From Coraliomargarita sp. (GTDB lineage Bacteria; Verrucomicrobiota; Verrucomicrobiia; Opitutales; Coraliomargaritaceae): DNA of 64,000 bases. The translations under genes and the position numbers were made by a program. Location: contig OZ244160.1 of the NCBI GenBank assembly GCA_965216325.1, positions 1,120,001-1,184,000 on the forward strand, in the 5' to 3' direction. The notes under the pieces are model-generated. The model searched no databases. It was not told the DNA's origin and was given only the letters and a program-made list of their open reading frames with translations. This document shows positions 38,858-39,635 of this stretch, in pieces; position 1 is the first letter of the stretch, and every line of letters begins with the position of its first letter.

Positions 38858-38957
38858 AAAAACAAAGGGACCCAGAGCCTACCCCTAAACCCTGGGTCCC
38901 ACTGTTTTCTGCTTTGTCTTATTACCCCAACTCTCCATACACAGGAGAAGATAACGT
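38858..38957 (-). ncRNA. Candidate small RNA A (paralog of the element at 39538)
   Basis: Minus strand: short hairpin UCUCC..GGAGA, then UUGGGGUAA, a 21-nt linker, terminator stem GGGACCCAG/CUGGGUCCC with loop containing UUAGGGGUAGG, then a U tract. Confidence 0.55.
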
Positions 38958-39091
38958 CGGTATATATAACAGTATGCGTGCCAATAGTTCGGCCTGTTCA
39001 GCTATTTCCCGGAAATAGTTTATTTTGAGCATTTTTTGCTCAATTCAGTCGCCAGCTGGGCGAATATCCCCATCTGTTAGGTGCAATAGGT

Positions 39092-39454
39092 ATGCCTTTT
39101 TCCAAAAACATCGAAGATGTCATCGCCGACTTTCGCGGCTTGCCACGCACGGTGACGGCCTCGTCACGTCGCCCTCCGGTGCCGATTGGCAATCTTCTGG
39201 TGGTTCTTAAGGAAAAATACAAACTAGAGCAGCCGAGCCCAGAGCGAACTCTGGTTGAGAATTGGGGCGAGATTTTCGGAAATCTAGCCGGACGTTGTAA
39301 TCCAATTCGAATTAAGGACGGAAGGACTTTGGTAATATCCGTCACGAATCAAACGCTTCGATCTGAACTACAATTTCGTAAGCGTGCGATTCTGCAGAAG
39401 ATACACCAATTGGACAATTGCTCAGGAATTAATGAGCTGGTGATCCGCGGCTAG
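39092..39454 (+). CDS. dciA: DUF721/DciA-family protein (replicative helicase loader-like)
   Basis: ENWGEIFGNLAGRCNPIRIKDGRTLVISV..RSELQFRKRAILQKI pattern and 120-aa length. Confidence 0.75.
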   Translation: MPFSKNIEDVIADFRGLPRTVTASSRRPPVPIGNLLVVLKEKYKLEQPSPERTLVENWGEIFGNLAGRCNPIRIKDGRTLVISVTNQTLRSELQFRKRAILQKIHQLDNCSGINELVIRG

Positions 39455-39537
39455 GAATAGCAACTGAGCTACTCATTTAGACTCGGTTCAACGGGTTGGA
39501 GCATTCTCGGTGTCAGAAGGCATTTGTTATCTGTGCA

Positions 39538-39635
39538 ACAAAAAAGGCGCGTTCCCTACCCCTAAGGAACGCGCCAACCATTGTCTACTTTATTCTGTTA
39601 CCCCAAACTCCCTTGCGGGAGAAATGTTGATGTTT
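39538..39635 (-). ncRNA. Candidate small RNA B
   Basis: Minus strand: CUCCC-GCAA-GGGAG GNRA hairpin, UUGGGGUAA, a 22-nt linker, terminator stem GGCGCGUUCC/GGAACGCGCC with loop UUAGGGGUAG, then a U tract. Confidence 0.55.

Follow-up and report, generated by a model that had tools for sequence, protein, structure and literature searches.

Predicted sibling small RNA genes on both sides of dciA in a Coraliomargarita genome represent a previously undescribed family

The question raised by the dciA locus of this Coraliomargarita genome is whether the two intergenic regions beside the gene encode small RNAs (sRNAs) and, if they do, what kind of regulators such RNAs would be. An earlier note, made from the sequence alone, had proposed a pair of sibling sRNAs on the minus strand. 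The window analysed is a stretch of 64,000 nt (GCA_965216325.1, contig OZ244160.1, positions 1,120,001 to 1,184,000), and positions are those of the window unless they carry the prefix C1. The two units are predicted genes of a previously undescribed sRNA family, and comparison across genomes makes it very probable that both are real sRNA genes. Their parts, with dciA and the upstream promoter candidates, are as follows.

38858-38958, minus strand: copy A, predicted type A sRNA gene, about 100 nt (covariance-model match and predicted fold)
38931-38949, minus strand: copy A hairpin 1, UUCUCC / GGAGAG with a 7-nt loop (predicted fold)
38922-38930, minus strand: copy A G box 1, UUGGGGUAA, unpaired in the predicted fold
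38901-38921, minus strand: copy A linker (type A), 21 nt, contains AAAGCAGAAAACAG
38867-38900, minus strand: copy A terminator hairpin (stem covariation and fold)
38878-38888, minus strand: copy A G box 2, UUAGGGGUAGG, at the top of the terminator hairpin
38857-38866, minus strand: copy A U tract
38968-38984, minus strand: copy A candidate sigma-54-like -24/-12 promoter, TTGGCAC-N5-CTGTT, that is GG-N10-GT
39092-39454, plus strand: dciA (Pfam DciA, E 5e-11), a neighbour outside the RNA units
39540-39632, minus strand: copy B, predicted type B sRNA gene, about 93 nt (covariance-model match and predicted fold)
39608-39621, minus strand: copy B hairpin 1, CUCCC-GCAA-GGGAG
39598-39606, minus strand: copy B G box 1, UUGGGGUAA
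39576-39597, minus strand: copy B linker (type B), 22 nt, contains AAAGUAGACAAUGG
39546-39575, minus strand: copy B terminator hairpin (fold and stem covariation)
39555-39565, minus strand: copy B G box 2, UUAGGGGUAGG, capping the terminator hairpin
39540-39545, minus strand: copy B U tract
39663-39690, minus strand: putative type B promoter, with a -35-like CTTGCA (39663-39668) after an A/T-rich tract

Layout, strand and fold of the two units

The shared minus-strand layout described in the earlier note, namely a hairpin, UUGGGGUAA, an A-rich linker of 21 or 22 nt, a terminator capped by UUAGGGGUAGG and a U tract, was confirmed in coordinates and motifs. The 5' end of copy A was deduced from promoter geometry and its 3' end placed within the U tract, and the 5' end of copy B was deduced to lie at a conserved CAUCAAC box. 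On the plus strand CCTACCCCTAA is exact at 38878-38888 and 39555-39565, as had been claimed; with up to one mismatch it has 3 matches in the window against 0.31 expected, a count reached in 0/100 shuffles. TTACCCCAA is found in the window only at 38922-38930 and 39598-39606 (0.16 expected). The GCAA loop attributed to copy B is present in both sequence and fold. It had also been stated that no minus-strand coding sequence ends at either terminator, and no minus-strand ORF of at least 40 aa does so; the sole minus-strand ORF nearby (39040-39345) is antisense, inside dciA. The flanking genes (GH13 amylase, dciA and PAPS reductase) are all on the plus strand, and thus neither unit is likely to be the leader or 3' UTR of a minus-strand gene.

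The fold energy of the minus-strand RNAs is better than that of 200/200 shuffles for each copy (z -4.9 for copy A, -4.4 for copy B). Terminator-like sites are found on the minus strand only: a 15-pair stem at 38900-38867 and a 13-pair stem at 39575-39546, and in both cases a T run comes next. The strand clues are in agreement with the original proposal: G-U pairs, U tracts and far weaker antisense model scores (at most 27 bits, versus 64-110 bits on the sense strand) all support the minus strand. The proposal that the second motif is single-stranded needs to be narrowed. The GGGG tetraloop is open, but the adjoining UUA pairs with UAG (U-G, U-A, A-U) in both copies. G box 2 is thus predicted to be displayed as a tetraloop, GGGG, closed by a short stem that includes a wobble pair, rather than as an 11-nt open loop. 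The U-G wobble beside G box 2 is kept in 41/44 sequences and would be a mismatch on the opposite strand, and the two inner pairs by UUA/UAG never vary in a terminator stem whose sequence otherwise varies freely. Thus, sequence-specific recognition is indicated and the strand is fixed. RNAalifold suggested an alternative helix between G box 1 and the CUCCC near the 5' end; it was rejected, being impossible in distant members with an altered hairpin 1.

Conservation and distribution of the family

Covariation of the stems, raised in the earlier note as a check, was found in an alignment of 44 sequences, from which the covariance model (R1) was also built. Double changes are seen in 12/18 pairs and 98.6% of cells pair; 0/500 shuffles match the observed values, and slid 3' partners pair at 40-56%. 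In the terminator helix, 99.8% of cells are paired and double changes are seen in 10/13 pairs. Hairpin 1 is mostly conserved as sequence in this alignment (CUCCC/GGGAG), and in distant members its helix is retained through other complementary arms. Conservation is much higher in the G boxes and the linker than in the stems. Members that the model detects but the search pattern does not retain both G boxes, with minor variants of box 1, UUAGGGUAA and UUUUGGGUAA among them. The type A linker is near-identical among type A copies of many genera, as is the type B linker among type B copies; three relatives have an extra hairpin inserted before the type B linker, which is itself intact.

Conserved homologues, the absence of which was to refute the proposal of the earlier note, are found across most genomes of the order, and their stems covary. 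A two-box pattern has matches in 31/41 relatives (0 for the backwards control), usually with one to three copies per relative, often in tandem about 200 nt apart. The sample of 41 relatives had itself been chosen by the motif, and so the survey was redone with the covariance model. When the phylum was sampled evenly, matches were found in 25/25 other genomes of the same order and 0/125 outside it (E <=0.001), and when the order was sampled more widely, in 104/151 genomes and 70/89 genera (E <=1e-5), with 1-5 matches each. The genomes listed as being without the family are mostly small (0.8-1.3 Mb); exceptions include the non-reduced family f60 (0/8). From these searches, the sRNA family appears to be widespread in, and restricted to, this verrucomicrobial order, which we infer to be Opitutales.

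In the 3.06-Mb single-contig genome the model has two strong matches, copy A (G000:C1:1158856-1158962, E 3.2e-17) and copy B (G000:C1:1159533-1159636, E 5.9e-23), the next best having E values of 0.2-1. The full double-motif layout is found at two genome sites only, and the 11-nt G box 2 is limited to the same two sites. The earlier note had named a high-copy match, showing a simple REP or terminator repeat, as a finding that would speak against an sRNA family. This is not what is seen: this genome has 2 copies, and relatives have 1-5. Among the weak model matches, G000:C1:2224459-2224549 and 2224675-2224765 (E 0.2 and 0.8) are near-identical tandem sRNA-like units with a GUUAG-rich stretch containing UUAGGGUAAC and a strong terminator, and G000:C1:2694558-2694650 (E 1) has several UUAG repeats and the terminator loop UAGGGGUAG. 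None of these units has an Rfam match; the last of them may be distantly related to the family.

The units could not be assigned to any known RNA family in the earlier note, and comparison with Rfam 15 agrees: the covariance search gives no family at gathering threshold in the region, and at E <=10 there are 8 chance-level matches, the top one being mir-1954 (19.5 bits; gathering threshold 99). Elsewhere in the window, Rfam matches identify group II intron domains D1-D4 at 22511-22800 on the plus strand (129.7 and 67.2 bits) and a TPP riboswitch at 58373-58489 on the plus strand (71 bits, gathering threshold 54.3). The 27-nt type B core is found in metagenomes on 11 contigs, all of at least 1 kb, and thus none of them is transcript-like. 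Four sequencing runs under the same species label, presumed to be RNA, gave no match on 38700-39800, which has no bearing on expression. Literature searches found no published work on sRNAs of this order or phylum, and in one table of a 2022 review the Planctomycetes-Verrucomicrobia-Chlamydiae group as a whole has 8 annotated sRNAs (PMC9029176). The family could readily be proposed as a new Rfam entry. Given its presence in about 70/89 sampled genera, its clear structure, its two candidate promoter classes and its invariant G boxes, it would also be an entry point to post-transcriptional control in marine polysaccharide-degrading Verrucomicrobiota.

In this genome dciA is divergent from type A, and its adjacency to the RNA is retained across the window's family; it is absent in family f18, where the RNA has a DAHP synthase gene on one side and a ygfZ-like/HU pair on the other (genes named by inspection of their translations). 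In most genera B follows A at a distance of about 200 nt; here, and in the two closest relatives, B is beyond dciA, on the far side. As a local target dciA was rejected, its leader having no conservation across the window's family. From this and the different gene context in f18, the link with dciA is treated as inherited order, not function. A link with the replication origin was also considered and rejected: the locus is about 80 kb from the closest turning point of the GC skew, and none of the DnaA-box matches listed is in C1:1158001-1161000. Over the whole genome the cumulative GC skew has turning points near 1.08 Mb and 1.80 Mb, and the resulting arms, about 0.7 and 2.4 Mb long, are very unequal. 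Among 17 loci with close DciA relatives, two (L069 and L078) come from records titled after unrelated taxa (Yoonia and Polaribacter metagenome-assembled genomes), and are probably mis-binned contigs.

Two subtypes and their candidate promoters

The 64 distinct copies were sorted by linker into type A (n=16), type B (n=33) and other copies (n=15), and the upstream regions were searched for a sigma-54-like box, defined as TGGCA(C/T)-N4-6-NTG(T/C/G) at 45-68 nt upstream of box 1. The counts are as follows.

Type A, linker marker AAAGCAGA: sigma-54-like box in 13/16 copies
Type B, linker marker AAGUAGA: sigma-54-like box in 0/33 copies
Other copies, neither linker marker: sigma-54-like box in 2/15 copies

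The background frequency of the box is 187/20000 random 100-nt windows of this genome. The spacing of the type A box is that of sigma-54 (GG-N10), and at -12 most copies have GT or GG (GT being the commonest) in place of the canonical GC; one relative (L060) has a canonical TGGCACG-N4-ATGCA, with GC at -12. The genome encodes rpoN and three strong homologues of sigma-54 activators, and canonical TGC-type sigma-54 promoters are present elsewhere in it. A perfect palindrome, CTATTTCC-GG-GAAATAG, is found at 38990-39010, about 20 nt upstream of the type A -24 box. The two closest relatives have a similar palindrome, which was not noticed in the other genera. The palindrome may be a site for a regulator, although no upstream activator site was identified as such.

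Type B copies have an A/T-rich tract upstream, and a CTTGCA-like box is present in 24/33 of their upstream regions, about 29-32 nt before CAUCAAC, and copies of family f18 have TTGACG at the same position. The -10 element is weak and uncertain. A consensus promoter scan of copy B chose other hexamers (39699-39670), so that the exact start of type B is unsettled. Judging from these upstream sequences, the subtypes are apparently switched on by different sigma factors. Type A would be transcribed from a sigma-54 promoter, which would make it dependent on an activator signal, and type B from a housekeeping-type promoter, with the two siblings perhaps feeding two inputs into one output.

Possible modes of action and comparison with known systems

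In the proposed mechanism, each RNA would be about 95-100 nt long and would comprise a hairpin in its 5' part, the first G box, UGGGGUAA, left unpaired, a subtype-specific A-rich linker and an intrinsic terminator, the tip of which would display a second G box, UUAGGGGUAG. The siblings would act in trans, the G boxes and probably the linker pairing with C/A-rich sites in target RNAs. This reading, in which the RNAs are base-pairing regulators, is favoured over that of a protein decoy, although the preference is tentative and falls somewhat short of an even chance. It is consistent with the motif being present twice, once unpaired and once in a loop, in tandem siblings, and with a long near-invariant subtype-specific linker that exceeds the need of a protein site and is left intact by the extra hairpin of three relatives. 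However, the predicted 4-nt loop that contains G box 2 would be an awkward setting for pairing. The complementary hexamer TACCCC is in 8/2558 start regions, the lowest count among 30 hexamers of the same composition with crude ORF calls, and the best duplex energies of the unpaired regions with start regions (-26.7, -26.6) are within the range given by six shuffled queries for each (-25 to -34). As the gene calls are crude ORF picks, these negative results are weak. TACCCC sites are intergenic in 96/401 cases, in 15% of the genome, an excess that is mostly due to repeat families and the sRNA loci themselves. Whole-genome target prediction with a seed and duplexfold was discarded, the duplexes being implausibly loopy. 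A C-rich repeat, beginning AUACCCCUCC, was considered as a conserved target and rejected: it is found in only 3/41 relatives, all of the window's genus, and so cannot be an order-wide partner. The repeat is multicopy and structured, with covarying hairpins and G/C-rich stems; a strict pattern has 9 matches in the genome (for example C1:468361-468412, 708155-708205, 1277893-1277943 and 3018998-3019048), with no Rfam match.

Rather than pairing with RNA, the G boxes may be two sites for a dimeric RNA-binding protein that is titrated by the RNAs or escorts them, as in Csr/Rsm systems with another motif; this is rather unlikely on present evidence. An extended motif, U-(U/A)-GGGG-UA-(A/G), is kept in two structural settings, and the short UUA/UAG stem with its U-G wobble is conserved as sequence instead of covarying, a layout that resembles the hairpin ligand of CsrA, where the motif is likewise displayed on a short stem. 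The lack of signal in the base-pairing target searches is also compatible with a decoy, as is a genome with one RRM protein in which CsrA (search of all but 24 kb of a 99.98% complete genome), Hfq and ProQ/FinO were not found. Against it, each RNA has two sites only, the linker is longer than a protein site requires, and no candidate protein emerged. GGGGTA is not enriched at start regions (7/401 sites), which gives no hint of a matching mRNA regulon. The RRM protein is disfavoured as partner, as the leader of its gene is without a G box and its co-occurrence with the sRNA is not strict: RRM_1 is found in 118/151 genomes of the order versus 104/151 for the sRNA, with at least 15 discordant genomes, at least 5 of them with the sRNA and without RRM_1 (G033, G034, G038, G182, G191) and at least 10 the reverse. 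That the paired G boxes are the sites of a candidate global RNA-binding protein, with the siblings forming a new Csr-like titration circuit, is a doubtful extension and held to be a little less probable again. If true, one arm of a Csr-like circuit would be under sigma-54 and the other constitutive, in a bacterium in which Hfq, CsrA and ProQ were not found (one genome tested).

A ribosome-directed function, through 30S binding or minimal translation, is very unlikely. It would rely on the G boxes being Shine-Dalgarno-like and on a start-Gly-stop mini-frame in box 1, following GGGAG. The triplet before GGG-UAA is UUG in 57/64 copies and AUG in 4/64 (figures partly forced by the search regex), AUG forms are found in other families, and GGGGU can pair with the anti-Shine-Dalgarno core via one G-U pair. 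However, GGGAG is 0-3 nt from the start triplet, too near for normal initiation, one distant member is without any GGGAG, and the start triplet is absent from three copies. Equally improbable is that the hairpins are simply bidirectional terminators or insulators for convergent genes (GH13 amylase, dciA), with flanks that have no RNA function. The hairpins do lie just after plus-strand stop codons (38834, 39454), with A runs on the opposite side, and the plus strand folds into stems too. Nothing in this reading accounts for the conserved hairpin at the 5' side, for G box 1 and its linker, or for two promoter types at fixed distances, and the unit is also present in quite different gene contexts; the terminator calls, the G-U pairs and the low antisense scores favour the minus strand. 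Least probable is a cis-acting leader or attenuator of a downstream minus-strand gene, or a REP or mobile repeat. The units terminate in terminators as attenuators do, but the next genes on the minus-strand side are oriented in the opposite direction, and tandem copies in relatives have no gene between them; for a repeat, two copies per genome are too few.

The closest parallels among base-pairing sRNAs are AbcR1/AbcR2, RsaE/RoxS and GcvB. AbcR1 and AbcR2 are tandem sibling sRNAs of alpha-proteobacteria that carry C-rich anti-Shine-Dalgarno boxes and depend on Hfq. Like the siblings here, they are about 100 nt long, lie side by side, display one motif twice (in a loop and unpaired) and end in an intrinsic terminator; unlike in AbcR1/2, the boxes here are G-rich, the second is in the terminator tip, and an Hfq gene was not found. 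RsaE/RoxS of Firmicutes pairs with ribosome-binding sites through C-rich motifs. It has the same size and plan as the RNAs here (hairpin, unpaired motif, motif-loop hairpin, U tail), and each family is widely conserved within one large clade. However, the motifs here are G-rich, of reverse polarity, and the family has no Rfam match. In GcvB, an Hfq-dependent RNA, a G/U-rich seed pairs with C/A-rich sites. This is the kind of target that the G box here (complement UUACCCCAA) would need, although the RNA itself is unrelated and the enrichment of complementary sites at start regions that GcvB-like pairing needs is not seen.

For the promoters, the comparison is with Qrr1-5, GlmY/GlmZ and CrcZ/CrcY, which are sigma-54-dependent sibling sRNAs with a -24/-12 promoter and an activator, and in which paralogues are placed on different inputs. 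They have no sequence or structure match to the RNAs here, and they differ in that the sigma-54 box here is found in one subtype only, mostly with GT at -12. Decoys of the CsrB/RsmZ type have many GGA motifs and need CsrA. A short G-containing motif repeated on a hairpin tip and in an unpaired stretch is common to both; however, there are two GGGG boxes here, and a CsrA gene was not found. FopS and GibS of Bacteroides are multicopy sRNAs associated with the RRM protein RbpB, and FopS is reported to be in Rfam (PMC11697453). They resemble the family here in being paralogous sRNAs with an unpaired 5' part and a terminator, in a bacterium with an RRM protein and without Hfq, CsrA and ProQ; they differ in that the RRM gene and the sRNA co-occur non-strictly here. 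Although unrelated in sequence to the family here, FopS/GibS are the closest worked example of sRNAs in bacteria without the classical chaperones.
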